A model generated the notes under the pieces. That model did not search any database. It was not told where the DNA came from and saw only the letters and a program-made list of their open reading frames with translations. This document shows positions 15,882 to 39,799 of a stretch of 64,000 nt of DNA, in pieces; position 1 is the first letter of the stretch, and each line of letters opens with the position of its first letter. Location of the stretch: the NCBI GenBank assembly GCA_965242925.1, contig CBDEUM010000012.1:64001-128000 (forward strand). The letters are read 5' to 3'. The DNA comes from Roseibacillus sp. GTDB lineage: Bacteria > Verrucomicrobiota > Verrucomicrobiia > Verrucomicrobiales > Akkermansiaceae. Both the position numbers and the translations under genes were made by a program.

Positions 15882-18800
15882 TCAGTTCCAGACCCGAAGA
15901 CGGGCGAAGAGCCGGGCCCCTGCCGGGTCGGGGGAATCCGCGCGCCAGGTTTCAATCACCAGTCCGTCGTTATTTCCGCTCGGCGTCTGACTCACCAGGA
16001 CTCCTCCCGCCGTCCAGGTCACGAGATCAGAGGAAAACTCGACCGCGTAGTTCAGTTCATCCGCGGCCACCTCCCGGGTGAAGGTCAAGGTGAGAAACGA
16101 CTCCTCGCCGTTGTCCATCGTAAAAATCCCGGCCCCGGCCACCGGCAGAAACTCCTCGGAGGCCACCATGGGATCTCCCCCGAGGAAGAACTCCAGCATG
16201 GTCACCATCCCGTCGTCGTCTCCATCCCCGAAATCCTCGGAAACCTCGTGATGCTCTTTCCAGGCGGCGTAATCCAAGGTGTCATCGTCTCCCGGTGTTC
16301 CTTCAGGATAACGACTGATGCGCCAGTTGGCCGGGTCATTGTGATCCGGCCTGAGAATTTCGTCCACATTCCGGAGCACCAGACTGAATTCACCATCCCC
16401 GCCAGGAGGCCAGGGAAGCTTATCGGCATACTCGTCAATGTCATGAATGGTGGTGCCTGCTCCAAAGGAGAGTTTCAGGCGCTCGCCACTGTTGCGCAGG
16501 TTGTCATTGGGATATTCCCCGGCAATGGGCAGTCCTGCCCCATAACGCACCTCAAAGGCGGCCCGATTCTTAACCACCAGGACGTATTCTCCCGGCTCCA
16601 GCGTCTCCATCCCGCTGCCCCCGAAGTCAAAGTCGATCCCCTTGGTAAAGCGAACGTTGCGCAGGTCGAGGGCGGTGGGTCCGACATTCTTCAGTTCCAG
16701 ATACTCGAACTCGTCCCGGTTGGTGGAAATGAGGCGCTCTTCTCCCACTGGCTCGGGCGGGTGGTACATGAATTCCGAGATGCGCAGGTCACGCAGATGA
16801 TCGGAGATATTGGGCGCAGTGGCCTGGAACTCCACGGGCTGGGACCAATGGCTCCACCGGCCGGCGGCATCCTTCATCCGCACCCGCGCCCGGTAGGTCC
16901 TGCCCACCCTGACCGCCAGGGGAGGAAACTGGTAGGCCCCATCAAAGGCTGCCAACTCCCCCGACTTGAAGCCCCCTCGATCTCGTAGATGTTGGGCCGG
17001 GCAGGATCGTAATCCGCCACCGCCGGATTGTGGACCTCGGCCAAGCGCCACTCCATGGCCGCGAAACGCGACCGACTGGGGCTGGAAAAGGTGCTGCAGT
17101 TGAAGGTCAGTCCGTCCGACGGATAGCCTTCCGGCCCGGTATAGGTGATCGTCGGTTTTCGGGGGACATCGTCCTCCTGGCTCAGAAGCGTCCTGGACAT
17201 CCAGTTCCCCCGCGATGTGATCCATGTCTTCACGACGCGCACCATCCCGGCAAAATCCCTGGTGGAGGAGATATCGTAGTAGCGGTCCTTGTGATTCAGA
17301 CGCGGGTGATTATCCCACATGCGCCGATCGACATCCACGAGGGAGGGCTCTTCCGGGGTGTAGACGAACTTCATGGTCTCATCCACCAGCTTGTAGCCCT
17401 CGTCACGATTGAAGAGCAGGTCGAGAATCTCGCGCACACGGTTCTGGTAGTCGGTATTGAAGGCCGGATTCTGGGCCACCTTCGATTTGAAATCGTGATT
17501 CCCATTGCCATACATGTTGTTGGCGAAGGTGAGATCAAGATCCCAGGGGAGGAGCTCGAATTTGTCGGTCTCCGGGTTGTGGTAGTAGAAATAGTTCTTA
17601 CCGTAGGCGATATCGTAATGGTGAATGGCTTCCACCACCGTGCGATAGCTGAAGTATTTCTCGATGTTGAAATTATCCTGCCACCATTGCGCCGAGGGAT
17701 TCCTGCCGCGGTAACCGCTGATAAACGCGGAAACATCGGAGCGGTTTTTGACCTGGGTGGGGCCCTGGTTGTTGGATTCCCCGCTGTGTCCCTCGATCTT
17801 GTAGAGATTGCCGTCAGGCAGACCGTGCTCGTCCAGAAACTGCCCGTCCAACTGTTCGACGGCGAGGAAGAGCCCATAATAATCTGTCCCATACTGCGAG
17901 CGCTCCGGACGGGACTGGTCAATGACGTAGAACTGCACGTGATGGGTCTTGCTGGCTTCCACTCCGCAGAGCTCAAAGAGACGGAATCCCACTCCCTCGA
18001 AGAGTCCCTGCTCTCCCCGGTGCTGAAAATTCACCTGCTGAACGATGGAGGAGAAATTCAGTTTGCTCCACTTGGTGTCGTACTCGTTTCCGTATTCATC
18101 CCGGGCCTGGAATCGGTGCCCGCGATTGAAATCAAACTTCCAGAAATTCTTGCCGAACTGGAAGCGGTGCACTCCTCCCCGGGGCCGGTAACGGATATGG
18201 TCGTAGACCCTCCCTTCGTAGACAAGCGTCCCGGGCCAGAGATATTCCGATCCTCCGTATCCCCCAAACTGCGATTCGTCCACCCAGGAGGACTTGCTCA
18301 GCAGGAAGTAGGTCGGGATACTGGACATCAGTTCTCCCGGATAAGTCACCGGGGGGTCTCCCTCCCGGATCCCACCCCTCCAGTCGGGGGTCCCATTATA
18401 GACAAAGTAGGCGAAGTTGGATTGCGGATCATCCTCGTAGGGAACCTGCACCGAGCTTCCTCCGGCATCCTCTACCGTGATGCGATAACGTACCAGGTAG
18501 CGGTTCCGGTTCACATTGAAAGGCACGGTCCCGGTATAGACGCCGTCCCCGGCCTCTTCATCGTCGCCCTGGCCATCATCGGTCATGGGCAGATCCACCC
18601 ATCCACGGTCATAGGCCGGATCAAGGTTTGCCGTCCCGTTCTGGCTATACTTGAGGTAACGGCCGAAATAAGCCCCGGCTCTCACCAGCTGGTAGGACAG
18701 CGTCACGGAGTCCACCCCATCCGGATCAGTCACCTGGGCCGTGATCACGACCGGTTCGTTGGAAACCGGTTGCCGGGGAGAGTGGGAGACCTGCCTCGTC

Positions 18801-19366
18801 TGGGGCGGCGCCTCGGTGGAGTAGGTCACATTCCGCAGACCCGGGCTGGGTCGCCCGGATCTCCAACTCCCGCCCAGATCGGTTTCCAGGGCCGGATGAA
18901 TCAACTGGATGGACGGGCTCACTCCTGCCACCAGGTCCCCGACGGTGGGCCAGGGAAACCCCAGACGATAATCCACCTGGCTCACCACCGCACCTTCCGG
19001 ATCCCGCAGGTTCACCGTCTCCCCGCTGTTGCGGAGTCTGCCACTCCACGGCCCGAGCGCTCCACCCCGCCGGAACTTGCTCTCGATGGTCACCGGATCC
19101 TGGGCGATGATCAGATACGCTCCGCTCTCAATCCTGGTGGCCGGCGGAAAGAGGAAATCGACCCCTCCGGATATTTCCCAGCCCTCGAGACTGACTGCAG
19201 ATTCAGTGGGATTGAATACTTCAATAAACTCCGCCGTCACCGTCTTATCGGCCTCGTCGTAGTGAATTTCGTTGATGACGAGCGAAGGCACGTCGAGTTG
19301 AGCGAAGGCACTCTGGACTGCGGTCAGCAGGCCGACGACATAAAGGATACGGCGGACGGATTGCAT
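15882..19366 (-). CDS. CotH kinase-like / lamin-tail domain secreted protein, frameshifted at ~16972-16976 (about 1160 aa when joined)
   Basis: ORF 16874..19480 has a signal peptide from ATG 19366, LTD VINEIHY and CotH motifs KNYFYY and LPWDLDLTF. ORF 15882..17225 has LTD ISEFMYHP and the C-terminal domain. Adding one G to a G5 run joins them as IYEIEGGFKSGEL. Confidence 0.8.
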
Positions 19367-19518
19367 GGATCGGGGGTATGGGGAAATACAACCTGCCCCG
19401 GCCTCTGCGTCAAAGCAAACCCTGTCACGCATAAAATCCGGCCCGTCGTCCCATGCACTTTTGACTGTAGAAAGATGCATTCCGAGGTTAAAGGAGTGGA
19501 TCCGGAAGCTCTGAATCC

Positions 19519-22512
19519 GTGAATTACTGCTCTAACAAATTCCCTTCCCGAGGGCTGATGGCTGGCCTCGCTGTAGTCCTCATGGGATTGCTTGCTACCC
19601 AGGCACGAAGCGATTCACGGGATCACGAACAGGGCCTGCAATTCTTCGAGCGCAGGATTCGCCCCGCCCTGGTGACGCACTGCTACGAGTGTCACTCCGC
19701 AGGTTCCAAGAAGGTGGGCGGCAAGCTCTACCTGGATCATGCAGGGGGGCTCCTGCGGGGTGGCGAGTCCGGCCCTGCGATTGTCCCCGGCCGCCCCGGG
19801 GAGAGCCTTTTCATCCGGGCGATCCGGAAAGAGAATGACGACCTCGTCATGCCCCCGGACGACAAACCTTCCCTGCCGGAAGCTGTCGTTAACGATCTTG
19901 TCGAGTGGGTGAGACGCGGGGCTCCCGACCCCCGTGCCTCACCTGGCGGAAAGAGCCCACAGGAAGTAATGCCCGATGAGGCCGCCCTCTGGTCCTTCCA
20001 GCCACTCGGAAAACCAACTCCCCCTCCGCTACGCGACCAGGACTGGCCCAGGAATGACATCGACCGGTTCCTCCTTGCCCAACTGGAGTCCCGGGAATTC
20101 CGGCCCGCCGATGATGCCCCGCCCGAAACGCTGATCCGTCGACTCTACTGCGACCTCGTCGGATTGGCTCCGACCTACGACGAGATCGGTGAATTCCTCA
20201 GCGCCTGCCAGCAGAACAGGCAGTCTGCAGTGGAGGCCCTGGTCGATCGCCTCCTGGCCTCGCCTCATTTCGGTGAACGCTGGGGCCGGCACTGGCTGGA
20301 TGTTGGGCGTTACGGCGAATCGAATGGCAACGATGGACTGGGGCGCAATCCGACCTTCCCCCACGCCTGGCGATACCGGGACTACGTCATCCAGGCCTTC
20401 AACGACGACGTCCCCTACGATCTCTTTCTGAAGCAGCAGATCGCCGGGGACCTCCTCCCCTCCTCCTCCCCCGGGGAACGCCACCGCAACCTGACCGCCA
20501 CCGGCTTCCTCGCCATTGGACACAAACCGGCTGCTGCCATGAACGAGAACTTCGCCATGGACGTGGTGGACGACCAGATCAACACCGTGGCTACCGCGAC
20601 GATGGGACTGAGCGTCGCTTGCGCGCGCTGTCACGACCATAAACACGACCCCATCTCAACCCGGGACTACTACGCCCTCGCCGGGATCTTCAGGAGCACC
20701 GAGACGCTCTGGGGAAAAGCGGCCAACGAGAAACTCACCGCGCCAGCTACCCCCCTCCATGACCTGCAGGTCAAGACCGGGAAACCAGAGGAGAAGTCGG
20801 CTCCGGAATTTGCCAAGGGTTACGGCGAGGCGATCAATGCATTAAAGCCCGTCCTCTACGCGTCCCTGTCGGGTCCGGCGGAAAACCTCGTAATCGAGAA
20901 AGGGGTGACGCTCGCGCCAGGGACTTTTGCCAGGACGGAGGAAGGTCGTCTGCAAGCCGGGTCCGCCCTTCCGGTCAACAGCTATTCCGTCTCCTTCTGG
21001 TTCCGCAATGATCTCGGTAATAGCACGCGGGCCATTACCGCCTACCTCTTCTCCCATGCCGTGCTCGGTGACAAGGAACAGAAGGGAGATCACCTTGGAA
21101 TTGGTGGCACCCATGACCCGGGCCGGTCCGGCAAACTCTTCCTCTGGAACGGCACCAGGCAGAACGAGGGCGCAGCCGGCACCAGGGTCCTCGCTCCCGG
21201 CAACTGGAATCATGTGGTTCTTGCCCGCGACGGCAAGCGCATGCGCCTCTACCTGAACGGAGACCCCAAGCCCGAAATTGATGCCGAGATGCAGGTGGCC
21301 GCCCCTGTAAACGGGACCATCTCCATCGGCGCCCGCAATGACCGCTTCGCTCCTCTCAAGGGTTTCCTCGCTCACCTGGCGGTCTTCGATCGGAGCCTGG
21401 GGCCGGGTGAGGCCAACCGTCTACATGCCGCATCCGGCCAGAAACCGGGAACCCGGGAAGCACCTAGACCAGCTTTCGCGATGGGAGTAAGGGAGGGCAA
21501 GGCGATCACAGACTGCAAGATCAACATCGACGGCAACTCAAAGAAACTTGGATCCAGCGTCCCCCGGGGATTTCTTCCTGCCTGCTCGACGGAACTCAGT
21601 CCCCCCATCATCGGAACGGAGGCGAGCGGACGTCTGCAACTGGCGGACTGGCTCACCCGGGGCGACCACCCGCAGACTGCCCGCGTGATGGCCAATCGGA
21701 TCTGGCTTCATCTCTTCGGCCGTGGTCTGGTGACCACTCCTGATGATTTCGGCGTCTACGGAGCCCGCCCCTCTCATCCCGAACTCCTTGACCACCTCGC
21801 CCGGCGCTTCATGGAGGACGGCTGGTCGACAAAGAAACTGATCCGCACCATTACCCTCAGCCGCAGCTACCAGCTCGACAGCTCCTGCCAGGATAATCGG
21901 TTACTGGAAGCCGACCCGGCAAACGTCCTGGCCGGAAGACACCAGCGTCGAAGCCTCGACGCGGAGTCCCTGCGCGACCGCATCCTGCAGGCTGGCGGCA
22001 CGCTTGACCTGGAACCCGCCCGGGGCTCCGCGATCGATGATCTCGATATCCTCCTCAACTGGCCGCCGGGAGAGGCCAAGTATCTCCATGAACCAAGCAC
22101 CCACCGCAGTGTGTATCTCTGCATGCTGCGCAATGCGTTGCCAAAGGAACTGAGCTCCTTCAACTTCCCTGATGGCATGACCGTGACAGGCCAGCGCAGC
22201 ACGGCCACTCCGCCTACCCAGGCCCTCTTCTTCCTGAACAATCCCCTGCTCATCGCCCAGGCCCGATCCCTGGCCGAACGGATTCTCGCTCAGTCGGTTC
22301 TCTCCGACCAGCAGGCTAATCTCGAATCCAGAGTCACCACCGCCTATCGACAAATCCTGCAGCGGAATCCTTCCAGGGAGGAAGTGACCCGCGCCCTCTC
22401 GCACGTGCACGATCAGGAAGTGGACCTCTCCGGGGCTGGCTCAACCCTCCGGGCGTGGGCAAGTTTTTGCCAAGCGTTATTGGCAAGTAACGAGTTTCGT
22501 TATATTGACTAG
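19519..22512 (+). CDS. PSD1/DUF1553-DUF1549 planctomycete cytochrome c domain protein with inserted LamG-like domain
   Basis: CYECH, GERWGRHWLDVGRY, CARCHDHK, TARVMANRIW, PSHPELLD. LamG-like insert (WNHVVLARDG..RLYLNG). Confidence 0.9.
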   Translation: MNYCSNKFPSRGLMAGLAVVLMGLLATQARSDSRDHEQGLQFFERRIRPALVTHCYECHSAGSKKVGGKLYLDHAGGLLRGGESGPAIVPGRPGESLFIRAIRKENDDLVMPPDDKPSLPEAVVNDLVEWVRRGAPDPRASPGGKSPQEVMPDEAALWSFQPLGKPTPPPLRDQDWPRNDIDRFLLAQLESREFRPADDAPPETLIRRLYCDLVGLAPTYDEIGEFLSACQQNRQSAVEALVDRLLASPHFGERWGRHWLDVGRYGESNGNDGLGRNPTFPHAWRYRDYVIQAFNDDVPYDLFLKQQIAGDLLPSSSPGERHRNLTATGFLAIGHKPAAAMNENFAMDVVDDQINTVATATMGLSVACARCHDHKHDPISTRDYYALAGIFRSTETLWGKAANEKLTAPATPLHDLQVKTGKPEEKSAPEFAKGYGEAINALKPVLYASLSGPAENLVIEKGVTLAPGTFARTEEGRLQAGSALPVNSYSVSFWFRNDLGNSTRAITAYLFSHAVLGDKEQKGDHLGIGGTHDPGRSGKLFLWNGTRQNEGAAGTRVLAPGNWNHVVLARDGKRMRLYLNGDPKPEIDAEMQVAAPVNGTISIGARNDRFAPLKGFLAHLAVFDRSLGPGEANRLHAASGQKPGTREAPRPAFAMGVREGKAITDCKINIDGNSKKLGSSVPRGFLPACSTELSPPIIGTEASGRLQLADWLTRGDHPQTARVMANRIWLHLFGRGLVTTPDDFGVYGARPSHPELLDHLARRFMEDGWSTKKLIRTITLSRSYQLDSSCQDNRLLEADPANVLAGRHQRRSLDAESLRDRILQAGGTLDLEPARGSAIDDLDILLNWPPGEAKYLHEPSTHRSVYLCMLRNALPKELSSFNFPDGMTVTGQRSTATPPTQALFFLNNPLLIAQARSLAERILAQSVLSDQQANLESRVTTAYRQILQRNPSREEVTRALSHVHDQEVDLSGAGSTLRAWASFCQALLASNEFRYID

Positions 22513-22524
22513 GAGAACGAGGCG

Positions 22525-23865
22525 ATGCGAACACTCTCTCGACGTAGATTGCTCCAGGCCACCGGTTGTGGCTTCGGTTCCCTCGCCCTCAATGCCCTCT
22601 GTGGAACCAGCGCCTCCGCAGGGAGCCTCCACCGCAAGACGCCTCCCATCCCGGCTCGGGCCAGACGCGTCATCTTTCTCTGCATGCCGGGTGGACCGGC
22701 TCACCTCGACACCTTTGACTACAAGCCACAGACCGGCAAAACGGAGCATCCGGGATCCGCTTTCCAGTTCAGCCAGCACGGCGAAAGTGGCCTCTGGGTT
22801 TCTGAACTCTATCCCGAAGTGGCCCGGCATGCCGACAATCTCTGCGTGCTCAACGGGATGTATGCCGACACCGGGAATCACGCGCAGTCCTTCCGGCAGA
22901 TGGTCACCGGCGAACGACTGCGCCCTCGCCCCAGCCTGGGCTCATGGGTGAGCTACGGCCTCGGGACTGAGAACGGGAACCTTCCAGGCTTCGTCAGCCT
23001 CAACGCTCACGAGCAGTACGTGTCCTCCGGGGAGTTTCTTCCCGCCCAGTTCACAGGCACTCCCATCGGAACCAACGGTGAGGACATGTCCCTGGCCACC
23101 ATCTCCGATGTGGGCAGCGACCACCTCTCCCAGCGAGCCAAGCGACGCCAACTCGATCTCATCCAGGCCATGAACCACGGTCACCTTGAAGCTCGCGCCG
23201 ATGACCCAAGACTGGAGAGCGTGATCGAATCGATGGAGCTTGGCTTCCGGATGCAGGCCCTCGCCCCCTCTCTGCTTGACGTGAGCACCGAATCCCAAGC
23301 CACCCTCGCGCGCTACCGGGTCGGCAGGAATATCAAGGTGGGCACCTGTCGGCCGTCCGACTTCGGACGCCAGTGCCTCCTGGCCCGCCGCTTTGCGGAA
23401 GCGGGCGTGCGCTTCATCCAAGTTTCCCACAACGGCTGGGATCAGCACAAGAACCACCGCCGCGACCTCAAGGCCAATTGCGAATCGACTGACGCCCCCA
23501 TTGCCGCGCTCCTTGGGGACCTTGATCATCGCGGACTCCTCGACGACACCCTCGTGGTGTGGGGCGGAGAATTCGGGCGTCCCGGCCTCAAACCATCCGA
23601 CAAGAAGGACGAGACGGGTCATCAACCGGCCGGATTCACCTTCTGGCTGGCGGGCGGTGGAGTGAAGCGCGGACTGGCCTACGGCGGGACCGACGGCACC
23701 GGTTCCAAGGCGGTGGAGGGAAAGATTCACTTCCGCGACCTGCACGCCACCATCCTGCACCTCCTCGGTCTGGAACACGACAAACTCACCTTCCCGCATC
23801 AGGGTCGCCTCCACCGTCTTACCGGGCCGGAAGGCGGAAAGGTGGTGAGCGAAATCCTTGCCTAG
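22525..23865 (+). CDS. DUF1501 domain protein (Tat-exported)
   Basis: SRRRLL Tat-like motif, [36 protein letters not shown]. Confidence 0.9.
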
Positions 23866-24013
23866 GTGACCCGCTATAAGAAGAAAAACAGAGAATTCCG
23901 CGTCCGCCCCTCCGGTCTCCTTCCCAGAAATTGTCCGGACCACGTCACGTTTCGACACTCCGTTCCCGCTCTTGCTGGCCCCATCGCGTCTGCTACGGTT
24001 TTGTTCTGGAACA

Positions 24014-27000
24014 ATGAAACGCACGGTCACCACCCGCCTCTCGTGCACGCACGGCCTGGGACTCCTCCTCGGCCTGGCGATCCTGTTCAGCGCCTGCAAC
24101 GAGAACGGTGGCAACTCCGGGAACGAACCTGCTCCTCCAGCGCGCCAACCGCCCCAACCGGACAAGGGCGCCGCACAAGCTCCTCCCTCTTCTTCGGACG
24201 CCACCCCCAACCCCGTGATTCCTCCCAGCCCCGCCGTGAAGGCTGGCCCCGCGGAAACGGCTCCCGGCCTGGGCCAGGGGAACCTCATTGCTCCTCTCCG
24301 CGATGCCTACGAACGGATGGATCCGGGCAAGGACGGCTGGGCCTCCGAGGCATTCAGCGCCTCGGCCAGCGAACAGTTGCACCTTCTCGAAGACCTCCTC
24401 GGAGGCCCCGATGACATCACGGCTGCCTCCCTGGGAGAACTAGCGGTGGCGGAGGTATCGACCACCGCCCTGCGGCCAGAGAACCTGTCACTCACTTTCG
24501 ACGACGGCCGCTTCCTCGTCCGGCGTCCCCCTGCCTTGCCGGGCCATAATACACCCGGGATCGCAGCCCTCTCCGCCACCCTGAACAAGCTGCGCCCCGA
24601 GGAGGGCTCCATCGATCCCCACATGAAAATCTTCCGCGTTTTCCCCGGGGAAAAAGGCACGGCCAAATGCCTGGTGCTGGTGGACATCCTCAACCATAGC
24701 GGGCAGTCGCGAACCCAGATCAATGCGACCTGGTCCTGCAACTGGAGGCTTTCCCCCGACCAGTCCCCGCTCCTGACCTCGATCGCGCTCACCAGATACG
24801 AGGAAATCACGCAATCCGTCGACTCCCGGCCCCTTTTCGCCGATGCCACCCGGACCCTCCTCGACCGGGAGGATGCATATCACAAACAGTTCCTCCATTC
24901 CTCGGACCACTGGCGGGCCCACCTGCCCCGCGAACTGGGACTCGACCCGGTGGCCAATCATGGCCTTGCCATTGGCGACATCAACGGTGACGGCCTCGAC
25001 GATCTCTATGTATGCCAGCAGGGGGGCCTTCCCAACCGGATGTTCCTCCAGAATCCAGACGGCACCCTGCGCGACATCACCCGGACCAGTGGTGCCGGAT
25101 GGCTTGAATACTGTGCTGCAGCGCTCCTCGTCGATCTCGACAATGACGGCGACCGTGACCTGATCGTTTCACAGGACTTTCGGGTGATGGTCATGGCCAA
25201 TGATGGCAACGGGGCCTTCACCCTTGCCTTCGGTTCCTCCACCAAGGCCCAGTCATTCTCACTGGCAGCTGCCGACTATGACAACGACGGCCTCGTCGAT
25301 TTCTACATCTGCGGATACAACCCGTCCCAGTCCAAACTGCGGGGCGGAGCGATGGGAGAGCCCATGCCTTTTCACGATGCCAACAACGGCGGACCCAACA
25401 TGCTGTGGCGCAACGAGGGCAACCTGGGATTCAAGGACGTCACCGGAGTCACCGGCATGAACGCAAACAACACCCGCTACTCCTTTGCCGCCTCGTGGGA
25501 AGACTACGACAACGACGGTGACCAGGACCTTTACGTTGCCAATGACTATGGTCGAAACTGCCTTTACCGCAACGACGGTGGTTCCTTCTCTGAAATTGCA
25601 GCCGGGCTGCACCTTGAGGACACCTCTTCCGGCATGTCGGTGAGCTGGGCCGACTTCAACCTCGATGGCCAGATGGACGTCTACACCAGCAACATGTTCT
25701 CCAGTGCCGGAAACCGCATTACCTACCAGAAACAGTTCAAGTCCGACCTGCCCGAGGACGTTCGGAAACAATTCCAGCATCTTGCAATCGGGAACTCCTT
25801 GTTTGAGGGCGTTGCCAATAAGCCCTTCAAGGACGTGGGGATCGGAGCCGGGGTCAACATGGGCCGCTGGGCCTGGGGCTCAAAGTTCGTCGATTTCAAC
25901 AACGACGGCCGGGACGATATCCTGGTCGCCAATGGCTTCATCACCACTGCGGACACCGGCGACTTGTGAAGTGTCTACTGGCGGCAGGTCGTGTCGCAAT
26001 CCCCCGTCGATGATTTCTCCGAACCCGCCATCGCCTCCTACAAGCAGGGATGGCGGGCGCTGAGCCGTCTCCTGCACGAGGACCGCAGCTTCAGCGGCAA
26101 CGAACGCCACTGCGCCTTCCTCAACACCGGTAGCGAAGAGGCGAGCTTTGCGGATGTATCAGCTCTCACCGGATTCGGTTTTTCTGACGATGGTCGCGGC
26201 CTTGCCACGGTCGACTGGGACTTTGACGGGGATCTCGACGTCTGGATGACAAACCGCAACGCCCCTCGGGTGCGTTTTCTCACCAATCACACGCCGCCCG
26301 GCCAGAAGTTCATTGCCATTAAGCTCCGCGGGAACGGCAGGACCTGCAACCGTGACGCCATCGGGGCGCGCCTGGAGCTAACCCTCGAAGGGGTGGCACC
26401 AGCCACCCGCATCCGCACCCTGCGCTGCGGGGAGGGCTTCCTCTCCCAGTCCAGCAACTGGGTTCACTTCGGCATCGGTAAAGCCACCGGAATCACCAGC
26501 CTGGTAGTCAAATGGCCTGCCGGACCGGCCGAGAGCTTCACCGGCCTGCAGGCGGGTACATTCTGCCTCATCCAGCAGGGCACCGGGGCGTCTCGCCTCT
26601 TCTCCCCACCAGAACAGCGCGTTGTCTTGACTCCGCGGGAACAGACTCCCCTTCCTCCCACCGGAAACACACGTACCATCGCTCCCGCAGGACTTCCCCT
26701 GCCCCGGCTGGAAGTGATCGGGGAAAACGGGGAACTGCAACCTTACGCCCCCGACGGAAAACGTCCCCTCGCCATCAATATCTGGTCAAGTATCTGCGCA
26801 GCATGTGTGGCCGAACTATCCGAGTGGTCAGAGCACCGTGACGATTTGGCAGGAGCGGGCCTCGACGTGCTCACGCTCAGTACCGACCACCTCGATGGCG
26901 CGGCTCCACCGGAAGCGACGCGGGCCGCCCTTGCCAGGACCAGTTCCCCCTTCCCCAACCTGTCCATCTCGGAAGCCGCCCTCAAGGGTCTCGACTTCCT

Positions 27001-28069
27001 GCAGCGCTCCGTCCTCGATCGCAGGACCCCCCTCCCCGTTCCGAGCACTTTCCTGATCAACACCGACGGGGAACTGGTGGCCTTCTATCGGGGGCCGGTT
27101 GCCGTCAACCAGCTCCTCCAGGATCTGCGCCTGACGGGAACAGAGCAGCCCCCTGATGCCCGACGCAATGCCGCCATCCCCTTCCCCGGGCGCTGGATCG
27201 GCAAGGCCGTCCCGGGACGACCCAATCGCGTCGCTTCGATCATGGCTGACCACGATGAAGTCGAACTCGGGGCTGCCTACCTGGAACACTGTGCTTCCCT
27301 CCTCGAATCAAAAGCAGATGATCCAGACAGCAGACGCAATCTCGGTGATATCTACTACGTCGCCGGACTGCTGAACGGACTCAAGTCCGATCGCCGCGAA
27401 CTCGCCATCGAGCAACTCTCCCGCGCTCGTGAGCTGATGCCGCAGGACGTTCGCATCCGTTTGGAACTGGGGCGTCAATTCTTCCTGGCGGGACAATTGC
27501 ACAACGCCGAGCAGGAGATGGGCAAGGCTGCCGAGATCAACCCCGGTGACCTGGCACTGCTCATGGATCTCGGGTTGATGCGTTTTCGCCTGGGAGAATA
27601 CGAGAAATCACATGAGGTTTACAGGAACGTCATCCGGGCCACGCCCCGCAACGGTCTGGCCCGCTATCACCTGGCCAATAATGAAGTCCGGCTCAGGCGA
27701 TTGCCAGAAGCCATCGAAAACTATCGCAGGGCTCTTGCTCGTATTCCGGATCTCACCGAGGCCGCCAACAACCTGGCATGGATCCTCGCCAGTCATCCCA
27801 ATGAGAATCTTCGATCCCCGGAAGAAGCGCTCACCATCACCACCCGCCTCTGCCAACAAACCCGGGAGCGATCCCCGCTCTATCTGGACACCCATTCGAT
27901 CGCCCTGGCCAATCTCGGGAGGTTCCAGGATGCCATCGCGACCGCCAACAAGGCGATTGCGCTCATCCCTCCACGGAACGCGTCCGCGATCGATGGCATC
28001 CGCGGACGCATCTCCCTCTACGCCGCCAGCAAGCCCTACCGTGAACGTGGATGGAAAATGGAAGATTGA
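24014..28069 (+). CDS. CRTAC1-like lipoprotein: FG-GAP repeats + ASPIC/UnbV + CxxC redoxin + TPR; probable selenoprotein (Sec at TGA 25967-25969), about 1351 aa
   Basis: ORFs 23972..25969 and 25991..28069 are in frame and joined by TGA-AGT-GTC-TAC-TGG-CGG-CAG-GTC (DTGDL-U-SVYWRQVVSQSP). Lipobox LFSAC. DxNxDG repeats occur on both sides of the TGA. Also NRDAIGA and GEGFLSQ..VHFGIG (ASPIC), WSSICAAC (redoxin) and TPRs. Confidence 0.85.
25970..25999 (+). promoter_or_regulatory. Putative bacterial SECIS element
   Basis: 11 nt after UGA: stem GCGGCA (25981-86)/UGUCGC (25992-97) with loop GGUCG. It contains GCAGGUC, as in the E. coli fdhF SECIS apex. Confidence 0.75.
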
Positions 28070-28329: not shown

Positions 28330-31300
28330 ATGAAGGCCCACACCTTATTCACTTCTCTTTCCATCCTGGCCGGCGGTGCAACCATCGCAGGCGCAGCCAC
28401 CATAATAGGCGACGGCGCAGCCCGCCCATTCGCCAGCGGGGGAAGTCCCGATGGCTGGTCCGGGGTCAGCGTGCTCGAAACCGCCATCATCGACTCTACC
28501 ACCGTAGACGGCGTGGGGACCCTTGTCGAAATTACGGAGGTCTCGATGTTGGCCGGGGCTGATCGCGCTGGCGGAGTTCACCACTTTGCACCCATCCTCA
28601 TCGACTCCTCAAACCAAATCGCCTGGATCGGTCCTGAGCTCACCCCGACGCAGCCCGGCCACAATGTCTTTCCCATTACCGGAGCGGAGCTGATTGATGT
28701 CACCTACCGAAACCTACCGACTCGGCGTCTGGCAGTGGAATGAGGGTGTTGATGACAACGCCGGGGGGACCGTCGCCTTCGCCGGAGGTGGCGGCGGCGG
28801 GATGTTCCAGCAGAATCTCAATGGAACTCTCGGTGCCGATGCCATTTCGATCGGCCACGATGTTTCGGGGGGGGAACAACATGCCTCTGGTCCCGGTGGT
28901 CGCGACTACCAGATCGATGTGGTGGCCACCCGTGTTGCAAGCGCCGATGGCGACGGCGACGGGTTGCCGGATTCATGGGAAACCGCCAACAACCTCGATC
29001 CGACCGACAACGGCCAAGATCCGAATAACAACGGTGTTGCGGGCGATCCGGACCAAGGCGCTGACGGCGACCCGGACAACGACAATCTGACGAATCTGGA
29101 GGAGTTCGAGCTCCACACCGATCCCACCGATGATGATTCGGATGATGACGGTCTCACCGATGGCGCGGAAGCCACTGCCGGCACTGACCCGCTCGATGCC
29201 GACAGCGATGGAGACGGCCTGCCCGACGGGGTGGAAACCGGCACCGGCACCTTTGTCGACGCCAACGACACCGGCACCGACCCCCTCGATGTCGACAGTG
29301 ACGACGACGGGGTGGGTGACCAAGCCGAGATCGCATTTAATACCGATCCCAATGATGCCGCCTCAAAACCGGACGGCATCGCCGAGCTCGACACCCTGAG
29401 CATACTGCCTACCGGCAACTACGCGTTCCTGGGTGGCGGGCAAATCGTCAACGGCTACGTCGAGAACGATGGCACCCACAGCTGGCTGCTGGTTGGGCGG
29501 GGCCGCGAGGGCTGGACCTGGAACGCAGCCGGCCAGGGATCGGCAAACAACGTGAGCCAGGATATCGGAACCCCTGACGCGTTCGCGCCGGCCACCTACA
29601 GCACGGCTTTCATCAACGACCTGATCAGCGGATCGGGCGCTGATCTGACCGGAGTGGAGATTCGTATCAAGCGTGCAAGTAACCCGGAAGGCTCCGCCTA
29701 CGAGGAAGGGCGCTGGCGTCCGATTACTGAAAGCGCATGGCGATGGAACTTTGATGCCGCCATGCAGGTCGAGTATGAAGTGGTGGCCACCAACGGTGTC
29801 CAGGGTGGACAGCTTGGAACCCAGAACCGCGACACCCGTGACGGTGAGCTTGGCGGCAACGACGGGGACCGCATCTTCACCTGGAACTGGGGTGACCATG
29901 GGGTCATGGGCTTCAGTTTCGGCAGCCTGGTCGGTAACGGCTCGACCGATGCAACCAGCTTTCTCTGGGAGAATGGTAATGAGAACCACGCCATTCCCTA
30001 CGCCGAAATCTACATCCGCCTTGAGAACCCGGGTCAGGTTCCCGGTGATGATACTGATGGTGACGGCATCGTTGATATCGTCGAGGTGGCACTTGTGGGC
30101 AACCTGGATGACCTCACTGCCGGCGATGACGACGGTGACGGCCTTGACAGTCCTGACGAGATCTCCACCCACGGCACCGACCCCAATGATCCCGACACCG
30201 ACGGTGACGGACTGGATGATGGAGCCGAGATCGCCGCTGGAGCCGACCCGCTGAATACCGACAGCGACGGCGACGGCCTGCTCGATGGCGTGGAGACCGG
30301 CACCGGCATCTTTGTCGATGCCAACAACACCGGCACCGACCCCCTCGACATCGACAGTGATGGCGACGGTGCCAGTGACTCGTTCGAGATCAGCGAGAAC
30401 ACCGATCCGAACGATGCCGGCAGCACTCCGTCCTTCCCGATCGTGCAGCCCTCCTTCGTTCCCATCAATGAACTGGCCCCCGGCTCCTACGGGCCGGACT
30501 TCGCCCAGAGAGGAGTGAACTACCAGGAGAACCACTACGGCGGCGGTGTCATCTTCAACAACAACGCCCTGGGCAACTACAACGTGCACACCTCGGGAGT
30601 TCCGGCCCCCACCGCCTCCTTCGATGCCATCGAACCCCTGACCGCCCATGGTAATGGCGGGGGAACCATCTCCATCCACAACCGCCCCTGGCTCGACGCT
30701 GGCGGGGAGAACTTCACGGCGCGCTACAACGGCTACCTCGACATGACGGCCTTCAACCCGGGGACCTACAAGATCCACCTCGGGGCCGATGACACCAACT
30801 ACTTCATCATGAACACCGCAGACGGCGATGTCATCTCACAGCACAACTGCTGCCCGGCGAACCAGGAGCACACCTTCACCATGAACATCCCCGGCATGTT
30901 CCCCTTCGACAACGTCTTCGGGGAGCAGGGCGGCGGCGACTGGACCGAAGTCGGCATCAGCGGCCCCGGCATCCCCGGGATCGTGGCCCTCGGTGACACC
31001 GCCAACGGCAGCCCCCCGGTTTATCCCATCGGAGCGGATGCAGAGGACAGTGACGGCGACGATCTCCCGGACGCCTGGGAGACCGCTTGGGTCGCCATCA
31101 ACGACCTGACCCAGTTGTCCGATACAGGGGACTTCGACGCCGACGGGCTCACCGACCTGGAGGAACTCGCCGCCGGCACCAATCCCACCGACACCGACAG
31201 CGACGGCGACGGGATCTCTGACGGGGCCGAAACCAACACCGGCACCTTTGTCAACGCCAGTGACACCGGAACCAATCCTCGCGATGCCGACACCGATGGT

Positions 31301-32851
31301 GACGGCCTCAACGACGGCGAGGAGATCACCGAAGGAGCGGACGGATTCATTACCAATCCGACGGACACCGATACCGATGGGGATCAGATTCAGGATGGCA
31401 GTGATTCCCACCCCACCGATCCCACTCTCCCCGAGAAAGGCAATTTCTTCGCAATCGAATTCTTCGGGCCCGATGACCTCTTTGTCTCGGGCGATTCCGA
31501 GCTCGATCCCGGCAAGGTCGTCATCGCCGTCAACGTCTTCGGCAACAACGACTCCAATGTGAACGGTGTGACCTTCTTCACCGACCGCGCCGGCCTCGGT
31601 GACGCGGTCACCAATGAAGGAGTGGTCACCTCGGACGGCGTGACCGTGACTTCCAGTTCGACCCACACCATCGACGGCTGGAGTCTTCCCGCGCCCAGCT
31701 TCACCGGCGGCACCCCCGGATCCGCGGGCAATTTGAGCGAAATCATGGCCGACATCAGGTGGTCGGCAGCCCCCAGTCCCCTTCCTGTCGACATCGATGG
31801 TCTCGAACCCGGCCAGGAGTACATCGTCGATCTGCTGACTTACGAGGGCGCGGATCGCACCCGCTTCTGGGACATCAGTGTCAATGGGATCCTGGAATTC
31901 GACAACTATTCGTCCGAGGGCGACACCAACCTCGGCCATACCTGGGGCCCCGACAAGGCGCATGGACTTCGTGGAACAGTGAAGGCCACTCCGCAGGGTA
32001 GCATCAACATCATCATGCAGCAGCAACTTGGCGGTGATCCGCCCTTCCCGAACGACAACAACCCCATCCTCCAGGCCGTGATCGTCAGAAAGGGTGGGCC
32101 GACAATTAAGGAGCGACTGTGGGTTGAGCGCGATGGCGCCGGCAACCTCGTCCTGAATTGGAACAGCCAGATCGGCCGGCTCTATGACATTCGTTCGACA
32201 GATGATCCGGTGGCCAATCAGGATCCCACGCTCTGGCCCATCATCCTGACCGACATTGAATCCACACCTCCAGTCAACATGGAGACCATCCCCTTCCCGG
32301 GAGATGACAAACGATTCTATGTCTTCGAGGAGAAACCGGTTCCCCCCTTCTTCTCGGAGGACTTCGAATCAGGTGCGGGTGACTGGGTTGCGGTTGTCAA
32401 TGACGCCAGTAACAACACCCTCTGGGAATTGGGCACGCCTTCCGGCAGCACGGGCCCGATCACGGGAGCCGACGAATCGGCCAACGCCTTCTCCACCAAC
32501 CTGGGAGACTACGGAACGGACTCCGACATCTCGCTCTTCTCACCGCCCCTCGACTTCAGTGGTTTACCAGACGCTGAGTTGACCTTCGAGGCCTTCCGGG
32601 ATGCCGACGGCTTCGGGGACACCGCGACTGTCCGCTTCCGCCGGGTCGGTGACGATGTGCAACTGGGACCGGACCATGACTTCGACATGACCGTCTTCGA
32701 TACCGACTACACCAGCATCAGTGTCCCGGTCCCGGTCGAGGCCCTTGGCGAGAATGTTCGCATCGAGTTCAACTTTGTCAGCGATGGAACCGCGGACGCC
32801 TTCAGCGGTCTCTCCATCGACAACGTGAACGTGGAAGTAGCCGCGCCCTAG
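28330..32851 (+). CDS. Large secreted acidic multidomain protein with Ca-binding DxDGDG (TSP3-like) repeats and PA14-like domain; frameshifted near 28702-28720
   Basis: Signal peptide [22 protein letters not shown] in ORF 28243..28743; continues in ORF 28694..32851 after a +1 shift. Many D(T/S)DGDGLxDGxE...GTDP repeats. Confidence 0.8.
30245..31315 (+). repeat. Near-identical internal block, copy 1 (copy 2 at ~34213-35283, offset 3968)
   Basis: Long stretches are identical at nucleotide level. Identical 68-aa shadow ORFs at 30799..31005 and 34767..34973 confirm the offset. Confidence 0.95.
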
Positions 32852-33324: not shown

Positions 33325-36300
33325 ATGATCATGAAGAAAAACCCACTGAAACTTCTTGTCCTCGCCTCGGGAACGCTCGCTCTGGCCACCATGTCGGCGA
33401 GCTCTGGCACTGTGCCAACCTGGAACTTTGGAAATAATGGTGATGGCACCAACCAGGGATGGACGGTGACCGCTGGCCATTTCGCTAACGATGGCAACGG
33501 CATTGAGCCCGCCCAGGCAAATGGTACCAGGGCTCACGACGCCGCCCACCCGGTTGCGGTCCTCACCTCCCCGACCGTCAATTTCAGCCTCGTCAATGTG
33601 AGTGATACCGACAATGTGATCGATATTCTCTGGGAAGGTGGACAGGGAAACCAGAACGGCTCCCCCAACCCCACGAACCTGGCGGCGGTGATGGACTATA
33701 ACGGCGGCAACACGAACCAAGGCGGTCAGAAAGGCCTCGGCTTCCGCAACCTGACCACCGGGGAATATGATTTTGTCAGCTACGACACCACCGACGGTGG
33801 TGGAATCCAGACGGATTCATTCACCCAGCCTGACCTGGTCGCCAACGGCATCGATCCCGGCGCCAGTTATGAATTGGATTTCTTCACCACCGACGATAGT
33901 GGTTGGGGCTGGACTCGATTGAACGAGGTCAACCTCGATGCCGGTGCGATCGGGCCCGCTGTCCCGCCCTCAGACGACGACAATGACACCCTCTTCGATC
34001 ACTGGGAGCAGGACCTGACGGGCAACCTGACCGACCTGGACGGAACGGCCTGGGACGGCAATGGCGTGACCCCCGGACCCGGCGCGGGAACAGGTGACTT
34101 CGATGGAGATGGCAGCAGCGACAGCCAGGAGCAGGAGGGTGGCACCGATCCCACCGATGATGATTCGGATGATGACGGCCTCACCGATGGGGAGGAAGCC
34201 ACCCTTGGTACCGACCCGCTTAATACCGACAGCGATGAAGACGGCCTGCTCGATGGCGTAGAGACCGGCACCGGCATCTTTGTCGATGCCAACGACACCG
34301 GCACCGACCCCCTCGACACCGACAGTGATGGCGACAATGCCACCGACGGGTTTGAGGTGGGTGAAAACACCGACCCGAACGATGCCGCCAGCACTCCGTC
34401 AGTCCCGGTCATCCAGCCCTCCTTCGTTCCCATCAATGAACTGGCCCCCGGCGCCTACGGACCGGACTTCACCCAGAGAGGAGTGAACTACCAGGAGAAC
34501 CACTACGGCGGCGGCGTCATCTTCAACAACAACGCCCTGAGCAACTACACCGTGCACACCTCGGGAGTTCCGGCCCCCACCGCCTCCTTCGATGCCATTG
34601 AACCCCTGACCGCCCATGGTAATGGCGGGGGAACCATCTCCATCCACAACCGCCCCTGGCTCGACGCTGGCGGGGAGAACTTCACGGCGCGCTACAACGG
34701 CTACCTCGACATGACGGCCTTCAACCCGGGGACCTACAAGATCCACCTCGGGGCCGATGACACCAACTACTTCATCATGAATACCGCAGACGGCGATGTC
34801 ATCTCACAGCACAACTGCTGCCCGGCGAACCAGGAGCACACCTTCACCATGAACATCCCCGGCATGTTCCCCTTCGACAACGTCTTCGGGGAGCAGGGCG
34901 GCGGCGACTGGACCGAAGTCGGCATCAGCGGCCCCGGCATCCCCGGAATCGTGGCCCTCGGTGACACCGCCAACGGCAGCCCCCCGGTTTATCCCATCGG
35001 AGCGGATGCGGAGGACAGTGACGGCGACGATCTCCCGGACGCGTGGGAGACCTCCTGGGCCGCCATCAACGACCTGACCCAGTTGTCCGACACAGGGGAC
35101 TTCGACGCCGACGGGCTCACCGACCTGGAGGAACTCGCCGCCGGAACCAATCCCACCAATGCCGATACCGACGACGACGGGATCGCTGACGGGGCCGAAA
35201 CCAACACCGGCACCTTTGTCAACGCCAGTGACACCGGAACCAATCCTCGCGATGCCGACACAGATGGTGACGGCCTGAGCGACGGAGTGGAGACTGGCAC
35301 CGGCACCTTTGTCAGTGCCACTGACACCGGAACCGATCCGCTCAATACGGACTCCGACAACGATCTCATCAACGACTTTGACGAGACCAACAGCCCGACC
35401 CGGGATCCCAATGTCTCCGAAGCTCCTCAAGCTGGCGACCTCGCCGAGCATCTCACGGTCTACTATAACTTTGATGAGAACCTCCAGGACCAGGCCCACC
35501 TCATCCCGGGGACCGCCAGCACCGCAGCTGACGATCTGGAATTCATCGCACCCCACCCGGGAACCTACGATCCCGGACTCTTCGGAGGGGGCGGCTATTT
35601 CGGAGCGGGCCAGGGTGGCGGTCATGCCCAGACCGCCTTCAGTCCCGATGTCGATGGGGATATCGCCGGGCCCACCCAGGAAATCACCGTGGCGTGGTGG
35701 GGACGGGTCGACGCCTTCACTACCAGCTGGCAGATCGGAGTGGGTCGCGGTGAAGGAAGCAACTGGCGCTTCCACCGCTGGGGCACCAACCCGACCATGG
35801 CCTGGCAGGGAGGCAACAACGACATCCATGCCAACCCCGCGGAATTCAATATTGACGACGGTGAATGGCACCACTTCGTGGGAACCTCCAATGGGGTGGC
35901 CAATGTACGTGCCCTCTGGATCGACGGACAGGAGACGGTTTCCACCACGCTCTCCGGCCCTCTGAATTCCGACCCAAATCTCCCCCTGATGATTGGGGAG
36001 AACCCGGGGGCTCTCAACCGCCAATGGAATGGCGGGATCGACGATGTCGCGATCTGGCGACGCGCGCTGACCGGGGAGCAGATCCAATCTCTCTACCTCG
36101 CCGGCACCAACGGGGAGAGCCTGGGAGACCTCATCAACGGTCCTGGACTTGATCCGCTCGGACTCACGGTCAGCCTCGCCAGCAACGATCCCCTGACCAT
36201 CCGCGCCGAGTTCAATACCCAGGTCGCGAGACAGTATGACCTCCTGGTCAGTCCCGACCTCAACTCTCCGCGTGAATCGTGGACGGAACTGGCCGGGTTC

Positions 36301-36906
36301 CAGGATATTCCGACCGATCCATCCGGACGGGCCAGCGTGGACTTCCCCGCCCCCTACGCGGGAACCGGTTTCATCGCAGTCCGCGAGGAGAGCCTCCCCG
36401 CCTTCTTCTCGGAGGACTTCGAATCAGGTGAGGGTGACTGGGTCGCGGTTGTCAATGACGCCAGTAACAACACCGTCTGGGAACTGGGCACCCCTTCCGG
36501 CAGCACGGGACCGCTCACGGGAGCCAACGAATCGGCCAACGCCTGGTCCACCAACCTGGGGGACTACGGAATGGACTCCGACATCTCCCTCTTCTCCCCA
36601 CCTCTCGACTTCAGCGGTTTACCGGGTGCGGAGTTGACCTTCGAGGCCTTTCGGGATGCCGACGGTTTCGGGGATACCGCGGTTGTCCGTTTTTACCGGG
36701 TCGCTGACGAAGTGCAACTGGGGCCTGACCATGAACTCGACCTGACCGTCTTCGATACAGACTACACCAGCATCAGTGTCCCGGTCCCGGCCGAGGTCAT
36801 TGGCGAGAATGTTCGTATCGAGTTCAACTTTATCAGCGATGGAACCGCGGACGCCTTCAGCGGTCTCACCATCGACAACGTGAACGTGGAAATAGTCGCG
36901 CCCTAG
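33325..36906 (+). CDS. Large secreted acidic multidomain protein (TSP3-like repeats, PA14-like, LamG-like), paralog of 28330-32851
   Basis: 1193-aa ORF with signal peptide, DxDGDG repeats, and LamG motifs DGEWHHFVG and GGIDDVAIWRRALT. Confidence 0.9.
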   Translation: MIMKKNPLKLLVLASGTLALATMSASSGTVPTWNFGNNGDGTNQGWTVTAGHFANDGNGIEPAQANGTRAHDAAHPVAVLTSPTVNFSLVNVSDTDNVIDILWEGGQGNQNGSPNPTNLAAVMDYNGGNTNQGGQKGLGFRNLTTGEYDFVSYDTTDGGGIQTDSFTQPDLVANGIDPGASYELDFFTTDDSGWGWTRLNEVNLDAGAIGPAVPPSDDDNDTLFDHWEQDLTGNLTDLDGTAWDGNGVTPGPGAGTGDFDGDGSSDSQEQEGGTDPTDDDSDDDGLTDGEEATLGTDPLNTDSDEDGLLDGVETGTGIFVDANDTGTDPLDTDSDGDNATDGFEVGENTDPNDAASTPSVPVIQPSFVPINELAPGAYGPDFTQRGVNYQENHYGGGVIFNNNALSNYTVHTSGVPAPTASFDAIEPLTAHGNGGGTISIHNRPWLDAGGENFTARYNGYLDMTAFNPGTYKIHLGADDTNYFIMNTADGDVISQHNCCPANQEHTFTMNIPGMFPFDNVFGEQGGGDWTEVGISGPGIPGIVALGDTANGSPPVYPIGADAEDSDGDDLPDAWETSWAAINDLTQLSDTGDFDADGLTDLEELAAGTNPTNADTDDDGIADGAETNTGTFVNASDTGTNPRDADTDGDGLSDGVETGTGTFVSATDTGTDPLNTDSDNDLINDFDETNSPTRDPNVSEAPQAGDLAEHLTVYYNFDENLQDQAHLIPGTASTAADDLEFIAPHPGTYDPGLFGGGGYFGAGQGGGHAQTAFSPDVDGDIAGPTQEITVAWWGRVDAFTTSWQIGVGRGEGSNWRFHRWGTNPTMAWQGGNNDIHANPAEFNIDDGEWHHFVGTSNGVANVRALWIDGQETVSTTLSGPLNSDPNLPLMIGENPGALNRQWNGGIDDVAIWRRALTGEQIQSLYLAGTNGESLGDLINGPGLDPLGLTVSLASNDPLTIRAEFNTQVARQYDLLVSPDLNSPRESWTELAGFQDIPTDPSGRASVDFPAPYAGTGFIAVREESLPAFFSEDFESGEGDWVAVVNDASNNTVWELGTPSGSTGPLTGANESANAWSTNLGDYGMDSDISLFSPPLDFSGLPGAELTFEAFRDADGFGDTAVVRFYRVADEVQLGPDHELDLTVFDTDYTSISVPVPAEVIGENVRIEFNFISDGTADAFSGLTIDNVNVEIVAP
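34213..35283 (+). repeat. Near-identical internal block, copy 2
   Basis: See 30245-31315. Confidence 0.95.
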
Positions 36907-37332: not shown

Positions 37333-39747
<2,415 letters not shown>

Positions 39748-39799
39748 CGCATTCCCCCGATGCGATCAGCACGCGGGAACATCACACCACTTCACAATC

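Follow-up and report, generated by a model that had tools for sequence, protein, structure and literature searches.

A conserved in-frame UGA with an fdhF-like SECIS hairpin in a family of predicted CRTAC1-like lipoproteins from Roseibacillus and other bacteria

In the fdhF gene of Escherichia coli K-12 (NC_000913), an in-frame UGA is followed, after a spacer of 11 nucleotides (nt), by GGTTGCAGGTCTGCACC, and the apical part of the hairpin of its selenocysteine insertion sequence (SECIS) reads GCA-GGUC. CRTAC1 is a protein in which the Pfam domains FG-GAP and UnbV_ASPIC occur together, and it is not known to have a selenocysteine (Sec), a fused thioredoxin domain, TPR or a lipid anchor. ResA and TlpA are extracytoplasmic thiol-disulfide oxidoreductases that have a thioredoxin fold with a CxxC motif. 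Here we describe a gene that resembles each of these systems in part, located at 24014 to 28069 in a stretch of 64,000 nt (hereafter the window) from contig CBDEUM010000012.1 of the Roseibacillus sp. assembly GCA_965242925.1. It is strongly supported by sequence comparison that the UGA at 25967, which interrupts this gene, is a real, conserved Sec codon with an fdhF-like SECIS, because the TGA is conserved, the hairpin behind it covaries and Sec machinery is present.

Genes of this kind have been listed before. Table S9 of Kim et al. (2016, PLoS One, PMC4807772) gives four gene pairs as selenoprotein candidates, with the same domain description and one in-frame UGA that splits two gene calls; the closest hit has Gly as its homologous residue, and the SECIS entry is 'yes' for three of the four. 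The accessible part of the main text of that paper contains no mention of ASPIC or UnbV. Our set includes planctomycete loci that carry this TGA and hairpin, and we liken them to the four genes of the table by description. What is new beyond that study is the family-wide conservation, the covariation, the paralog expansion, the structure and the link to a CxxC motif. Literature searches that combined selenoproteins or selenocysteine with one of FG-GAP, ASPIC, CRTAC1 and Verrucomicrobia brought up no work on this lipoprotein family, and searches on the CRTAC1 crystal structure or propeller found no structure paper.

According to the list of open reading frames (ORFs) of the window, the ORFs 23972..25969 and 25991..28069 share a common frame, with only the TGA at 25967-25969 between them. 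Read from the ATG at 24014, the gene consists of 1351 codons and a TGA stop, and the Sec codon is codon 652. The read-through peptide runs ...TGDL-U-SVYWRQVVSQSP..., with another repeat of the FG-GAP type, TVDWDFDGDLDVW, downstream of it. Direct reading of the ORFs thus bears out the continuous frame, with an FG-GAP repeat behind the TGA, that a preliminary description of this DNA had reported. It bears out two further statements as well, namely that the downstream ORF has no signal peptide (it would begin VVSQSPVDD) and that an ordinary CxxC redoxin motif is present in the same chain (WSSICAAC). The central proposal of that description, a single lipoprotein of about 1351 residues with Sec outside a CxxC motif, is strongly supported by the TGA conservation, the hairpin covariation and the presence of Sec machinery. 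Judged by ORF lengths and positions, no other long ORF pair joined by an in-frame TGA in the window looks gene-like.

The Roseibacillus genome, a draft bin of 4.58 Mb in 42 contigs (89.9% complete, 3.2% contamination), contains 15 matches to the family, 13 of which have a TGA at the same column (DL-U-S..W). The family was found in 31 of 61 related genomes, where a single genome gave as many as 27 matches; every one of the approximately 150 rows listed, down to 44% identity, has exactly one TGA, and the search returned 220 further rows beyond these. Bins assigned to Roseibacillus (95% identity) and Akkermansiaceae (92%) are the closest carriers, and further carriers belong to Verrucomicrobiales, Limisphaerales, Pirellulaceae, Planctomycetaceae, Phycisphaerae and Acidobacteriota. 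When each species was represented by one genome, a scan in which one of the two patterns was written with Cys, so that it had no bias to TGA, gave 80 named loci, 79 with TGA and one with TGC. Pooling the homologous sites from Verrucomicrobiota, Planctomycetota and Acidobacteriota, without loci of unpublished genomes, yielded TGA in 140 of 152 sites, and the TGA sites provide 119 distinct 39-nt contexts. Ser+1, Trp+4 and Val+7 relative to Sec are invariant in 25 diverse members. The expectation that homologs would keep an in-frame TGA is therefore borne out by these 140 sites and by the 13 paralogs in the same genome.

Homologs with a sense codon at this column also occur. In the Acidobacteriota-type phylum of locus L092, the family is present in 33 of 201 evenly sampled genomes, and a single TGA interrupts 28 of the 40 matches listed, whereas the other 12 lack one (27 and 11, respectively, without the unpublished genomes G504 and G607). 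One order of this phylum carries the family in 49 of 151 genomes, and all 51 listed matches, which include two rows from the unpublished genomes G665 and G669, are uninterrupted. An even sample of 400 genomes of the phylum of Roseibacillus, 28 of them from one small-genome genus, gave no match at E <= 1e-20 besides the Roseibacillus genome itself, implying that within the phylum the family is confined to its own order or that the draw missed it, two readings between which this sample cannot decide. The protein database holds 120 full-length uninterrupted homologs with highly conserved flanks (DL-x-SFFWRQVV.SP), in which the residue at the Sec column is S (34), A (29), N (25), G (19), C (4), E (4), Y (2), or Q, H or R (one each). 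The two closest of these homologs have Cys, and among the distinct sense-codon DNA sites Cys is found in one of 39. Fused homologs with Cys or Ser, which had been anticipated, thus do exist, but most of the others have A, N or G instead.

The DNA around the site is also represented in metagenomes. Among the runs listed, 14 DNA runs from 10 marine or seawater metagenome studies hold the 601 nt from 25700 to 26300 (share 0.92-0.95), and one metagenome contig, possibly from the source sample, spans this segment with the TGA intact. This contig, which keeps the TGA, speaks against the concern that reads might show a sense codon. Contigs from two oligo-dT RNA libraries flank the site without bridging it, and one of them covers the TGA plus 14 nt only; DNA carry-over is possible as well, and for these two reasons we do not count the contigs as evidence of expression.

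Some of the paralogs in the Roseibacillus genome deserve a separate remark. Those at C12:51079, on the same contig roughly 13 kb before the window begins, and at C17:49805 are near-identical to each other, divergent (30% identity to the query piece; DL-U-SNLWRTVV) and alike in the 39 nt from the TGA. Either a single gene was assembled twice, or the bin may contain a strain variant. The copy at C37:896 (minus strand) differs from the paralog at C28:4493 by one residue in the first 70, and its frame breaks about 50 codons past the TGA, giving two tblastn pieces; duplication of a contig end, faulty assembly and a true pseudogene are all possible causes.

The hairpin GCGGCA-GGUCG-UGUCGC lies at 25981-25997, 11 nt past the TGA. 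The 119 distinct 39-nt stretches that start at the TGA align without gaps, and T13-G15, G22 and T23 (U23 in the RNA) are invariant, so that the loop G and U, as in E. coli fdhF, are the same in 119 of 119 distinct sequences. In the helix 15-20/26-31, 94.1% of the cells are paired over these sequences, compared with at most 66.9% when the partner strand is slid. The covariation score is 0.167 versus 0.081 +/- 0.008 for shuffled alignments, and none of 500 shuffles reaches 0.167. Pair 18-28, in which the wobble position of the Arg codon meets the opening base of the variable codon next but three, is GU in 54 sequences, AU in 40, CG in 14, GC in 2, UA in 2, UG in 1 and something else in 6. Divergent members (WRTVVR, WSTVVL, WRRVAS) keep the hairpin through coordinated changes or in a shifted register. 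The conservation of the hairpin had been proposed beforehand as a test, and its resemblance to the E. coli fdhF SECIS through GCAGGUC had been pointed out; the former is confirmed by the pairing and covariation, and the K-12 sequence does contain GCAGGTC after TGA and 11 nt. A search of 25800-26200 against Rfam gave nothing near a gathering score (best 17.2 bits, E ~1).

The most direct comparison is that between genes encoding the same S..WRQVV peptide. The hairpin is fully paired in 92 of 98 TGA forms (98.6% of cells) versus one of 33 sense forms (51.5%). GTC serves as the first Val codon in 95 of 98 versus 10 of 33, and GTG as the second in 97 of 98 versus 15 of 33. Judged by this comparison, the hairpin is under selection as RNA, synonymous choice being nearly frozen only in the TGA forms. 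With respect to E. coli fdhF, the differences are that the family has a stem of only 6 base pairs and a 5-nt loop, in which no bulged base was seen and which are built from the codons of a conserved W-R-Q-V-V-S, and that the protein is unrelated to formate dehydrogenase. We suggest tentatively that the SECIS may have been carved from the codons of a pre-existing W-R-Q-V-V peptide, in which synonymous choices alone would give the likeness to the fdhF loop. Contigs of other runs match only the 37 nt from 25961 to 25997 (UGA plus SECIS core) at at least 95% and then follow the paralog at C30:153375, which shows that the SECIS core is near-identical between paralogs that are only ~50% identical as proteins. 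One locus (L163 of genome G541) has the sense codon GAG (Glu) and yet a full canonical hairpin, GCGCCA-GGUCG-UGGCGC; it may represent a recent replacement of Sec.

Components for decoding UGA as Sec were found in the Roseibacillus genome: selB (287.5 bits, cut-off 242), selD (366.6 bits, with one in-frame TGA) and a tRNA-Sec with anticodon tca. Among the 61 relatives, selB scores over the cut-off in 28 of the 31 with the family, and 22 of the 30 without the family lack it. The three carriers without selB over the cut-off are two incomplete congeners and one genome with a weak match (1e-6), which is as much as could be found of a further scenario raised earlier, TGA-type homologs in genomes lacking Sec machinery. 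The selD gene (C14:573853-574776) is itself a selenoprotein gene (...SSCAG-U-ASKLG), in which a 7-base-pair hairpin, CGCGCAG-GUC-CUGCGCG, starts about 28 nt past the UGA; this hairpin, CGCGCAGGUCCUGCGCG, has the same GCAGGUC core as the SECIS of the lipoprotein gene.

These results allow the alternatives to Sec insertion to be weighed. A recent nonsense mutation that made a pseudogene, or a Cys codon (TGC or TGT) that was wrongly sequenced or assembled, would fit the Cys of the two closest database homologs and the draft quality of the bin, with its 89.9% completeness and 3.2% contamination; however, the same TGA in 140 of 152 sites from three phyla and in 13 paralogs of the genome, the strong protein constraint on both flanks and the separate metagenome contig that retains the TGA effectively refute this explanation, whose probability is negligible. 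Slightly less remote, yet still very improbable, is a reading of UGA as Trp, Cys or Gly through near-cognate decoding or a reassigned code. UGA-to-Trp reassignment is said, in the accessible part of PMC13462651, to exist in some Verrucomicrobiota. Here, TGA terminates the gene itself and 8 of the 13 paralogs, which indicates that the code is not reassigned genome-wide; Trp is found at the column in none of the 120 database homologs, the covarying SECIS stands only behind TGA forms, and tRNA-Sec, selB and a TGA-containing selD are present. It is also improbable, though not to the same degree, that the locus makes two products, with most translation ending at the UGA to give a lipoprotein of about 650 residues, and with a downstream part made by re-initiation at GTG 25991 or only under selenium supply, as regulated isoforms. 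The short and long isoforms that the preliminary description tied to selenium supply are speculative. Such a GTG does lie 8 codons past the TGA, and gene callers split the family (Kim et al. 2016, Table S9 footnote, PMC4807772). Yet the conserved motif DL-U-SFFWRQVV crosses the TGA, the sense-codon homologs are continuous, the cut would land inside a folded propeller and leave a downstream piece without a signal peptide, and the GTG is codon V2 in the 39-mers and part of the hairpin.

The position of the Sec residue was examined in a structural model of residues 296-1085 built with 65 homologs, in which 22 rows, including the query, were read with TGA as Cys. The model has a predicted local distance difference test score (pLDDT) of 93.0 and a predicted template modelling score of 0.94. 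Sec is residue 371 of the model, in the first turn of a helix (370-377) that, together with a second helix (389-407), is inserted between propeller strands. Redox-active Cys or Sec residues are usually placed at the N-terminus of a helix. Because Sec is on a helix in a propeller insert, the site is not a Ca-binding FG-GAP loop; the preliminary description was thus right about the propeller, but its placement of Sec in a Ca-binding loop does not agree with the model. For the propeller and UnbV part, the top Foldseek match is murine CRTAC1 (PDB 9etn, chain 9etn_A; E 7.2e-26, template modelling (TM) score 0.71 normalised to the target, root-mean-square deviation 3.6 over 598 columns), so that the same Pfam pair comes with a matching fold at an identity of 16%. 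The C-terminal domain matches ResA and TlpA chains (TM 0.69-0.83). It differs from these in that it is fused behind a propeller, remains under the Pfam AhpC-TSA cut-off (22.8 versus 26 bits) and has the Sec of the same chain as its presumed substrate. The Glu three residues past its second Cys is at what we take to be the place of Glu80 of ResA.

The presence of Sec and that of the CxxC motif go together in the raw counts. CxxC is found in 130 of 136 assessable TGA forms, 123 of which align to a thioredoxin domain with CxxC and 7 of which have it at the expected distance of 257-281 residues past Sec; the remaining sites of the 140 comprise one CxxS, one with unread bases, four that end after UnbV and four loci that are too short. 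Of the 116 database proteins in which the Sec column has a sense residue other than Cys, 13 have CxxC, 67 the second Cys only and 30 neither. The first Cys and the Glu three past the second Cys are present in 100% of 84 Sec forms versus 11% of the 116 sense forms. The residue Cys714 (ER[HN]C) occurs in 85% of Sec forms versus 9% of sense forms; we do not claim it as a resolving Cys, as it is absent from several TGA forms and confounded by kinship. Short members, namely C13:146637, C34:106360 and also L042, have 815-820 residues, end right after UnbV without the thioredoxin/TPR part and carry U-S-C. The Cys two residues past Sec in these members is a possible local resolving thiol.

Taken together, we consider it highly probable that the locus is one gene for a predicted lipoprotein, in which UGA is decoded as Sec by means of SelB, tRNA-Sec and the SECIS; the part of this reading in which Sec would be a redox centre reduced by the fused CxxC domain is inferred. 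In such a scheme, SelB and tRNA-Sec would decode the UGA under the direction of the hairpin, which by comparison is an fdhF-type SECIS with a GGUC loop. The Sec at the N-terminal end of a short propeller helix would be the reactive centre outside the cytoplasm, acting perhaps on a peroxide-, sulfoxide- or disulfide-type substrate, and the first Cys of the CxxC domain, as the nucleophile, would return it from its oxidised form (a selenenic acid or a selenenylsulfide) to the reduced one. In the short forms the vicinal Cys may regenerate Sec instead. Electrons for the CxxC domain might come from a CcdA/DsbD-type membrane protein, and a DsbD_TM gene is present in the genome at C4:127864-128520. 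An extracytoplasmic Sec/CxxC redox relay is hence the likely function. A more specific proposal, which we put forward tentatively and consider rather doubtful, is an intramolecular selenenylsulfide relay between Sec and the first Cys. It would turn these CRTAC1-like propellers into extracytoplasmic selenoenzymes, and the module would be lost as a unit in lineages where Sec is replaced by S, A, N or G.

Several observations weigh against the reading of a Sec centre served by the CxxC domain. Cys, found at the Sec column in four of the 120 database proteins, is rare there, whereas catalytic Sec sites typically have homologs with Cys. On its own, the RNA of 25960-26040 has no exceptional stability (z +1.28, with 185 of 200 shuffles being equally or more stable), and because the folding energy is no better than that of shuffles, the hairpin is validated by homolog comparison only. 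The gene selA was not found in the Roseibacillus assembly, which is 89.9% complete, and 11 of 12 congeners have it; the co-occurrence with Sec genes that had been proposed as a test is seen for selB in most of the carriers and for selB, selD and tRNA-Sec in the genome itself. In the order with only sense codons, 24 of 49 carriers have selB (two of the 24 being unpublished genomes). Four TGA forms are without any thioredoxin domain. Finally, kinship was taken into account with a FastTree phylogeny of the propeller from which the Sec column had been removed, and on which 13 changes of the Sec state and 12 of the CxxC state are counted; over 8 independent contrasts between Sec and sense forms, CxxC changes the same way in ~3.3, the opposite way in 0 and not at all in ~4.7, and the sign test (p ~0.25) is underpowered. 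This direction would tentatively fit a loss of Sec first, with CxxC decaying later. The earlier suggestion that the CxxC domain recycles Sec accordingly agrees with the raw co-occurrence but finds no significant support once kinship is controlled for. An explanation that would accommodate these last points is that Sec is inserted but is not a CxxC-recycled redox centre, being either a metal or metalloid ligand that is kept reduced, as TlpA does with copper sites, or a sensor, while the thioredoxin domain serves other substrates. The fold likeness of the thioredoxin part to TlpA in complex with ScoI and CoxB (4txo, 4txv) would suit this explanation, as would the S, A, N or G, not Cys, of the sense-codon homologs. 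However, the raw co-occurrence of CxxC (130 of 136 versus 13 of 116) speaks against it, the U-S-C in three of the four domain-less forms suits a local resolving thiol, and a helix N-terminus is where redox-active Cys or Sec is usually placed, and we regard it as unlikely, although it deserves to be kept in mind. We retain the Sec/CxxC redox centre as the preferred reading.

The features of the gene are collected in Table 1. The product is predicted to be an exported lipoprotein, as its N-terminus has a hydrophobic signal with ...GLAILFSA-C at residues 20-28, and, by direct reading, 9 of the 13 paralogs have an N-terminal hydrophobic stretch ending in Cys. It should be noted that the Phe at position -3 of the lipobox is not the textbook residue. 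The Pfam scores of FG-GAP_3 and UnbV_ASPIC are both above their cut-offs. A search of NCBIfam gave no family model for the propeller part, and just TPR matches and weak thioredoxin-type matches far under the cut-offs.

Table 1. Positions of the gene and its features in the window
Feature	Position	Strand	Basis
Whole selenoprotein gene	24014..28069	+	Table 11 splits it into two ORFs; 120 full-length fused homologs in the protein database
Signal peptide, lipobox-like ...LFSA-C (Cys28), predicted lipoprotein	24014..24097	+	Direct reading
FG-GAP beta-propeller, CRTAC1-like, Sec site in helical insert	24947..26296	+	Pfam FG-GAP_3 9.3e-39, 132 bits; model; Foldseek
In-frame UGA, Sec codon, residue 652	25967..25969	+	Column conserved in paralogs and homologs
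SECIS hairpin, 6-base-pair stem GCGGCA/UGUCGC, loop GGUCG, 11 nt past UGA	25981..25997	+	Comparison with homologs
UnbV_ASPIC domain	26357..26557	+	Pfam PF07593, 5.2e-15, 55.5 bits, residues 796-862 of P0001
ResA/TlpA-like thioredoxin-fold domain	26735..27121	+	Foldseek; Pfam AhpC-TSA 22.8 bits, under cut-off 26
CxxC (C-A-A-C) and Glu	26795..26806 (CxxC), 26813..26815 (Glu)	+	Within WSSICAAC 26783-26806
C-terminal TPR repeats	27383..27826	+	Pfam TPR_2, TPR_11, TPR_16 and others, residues 1138-1285 of P0001

The neighbouring genes give no clue to a substrate, as they encode DUF1549/DUF1553/DUF1501 pairs and TSP3-repeat, LamG, CotH and lamin-tail-domain (LTD) proteins. Two tandem PSCyt1/DUF1549/DUF1553 plus DUF1501 pairs, typical of the Planctomycetes-Verrucomicrobia-Chlamydiae (PVC) group, occupy 19519-23865 and 37333-41236, and the first ends 148 nt before the ATG at 24014. 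Directly downstream of the gene, 28694-32851 and 33325-36906 encode large, secreted-looking proteins with bacterial TSP3 repeats, one of them also with LamG. Two large, secreted-looking CotH-kinase/lamin-tail-domain proteins are encoded at 16874-19480 (minus strand) and 41420-45709.

In summary, the family consists of widespread, much-duplicated and essentially uncharacterised selenoproteins of marine and soil bacteria. Since annotation pipelines split these genes, they hide a family that may dominate the selenoproteins of marine Verrucomicrobiota and Planctomycetota and of some Acidobacteriota, and the selenium demand of these abundant heterotrophs is consequently underestimated. The family also offers a clean natural case of overlap between a SECIS and the codons of a strongly conserved peptide. 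If the relay that we tentatively propose is true, the 13 TGA copies in this genome, and up to 27 matches in a related genome, would be among the largest single-family expansions of bacterial selenoproteins. A Sec residue located in a beta-propeller outside a thioredoxin-type motif, and apparently tied to a fused CxxC domain, would be the first chemical clue to what the bacterial ASPIC/UnbV (CRTAC1-like) proteins do.

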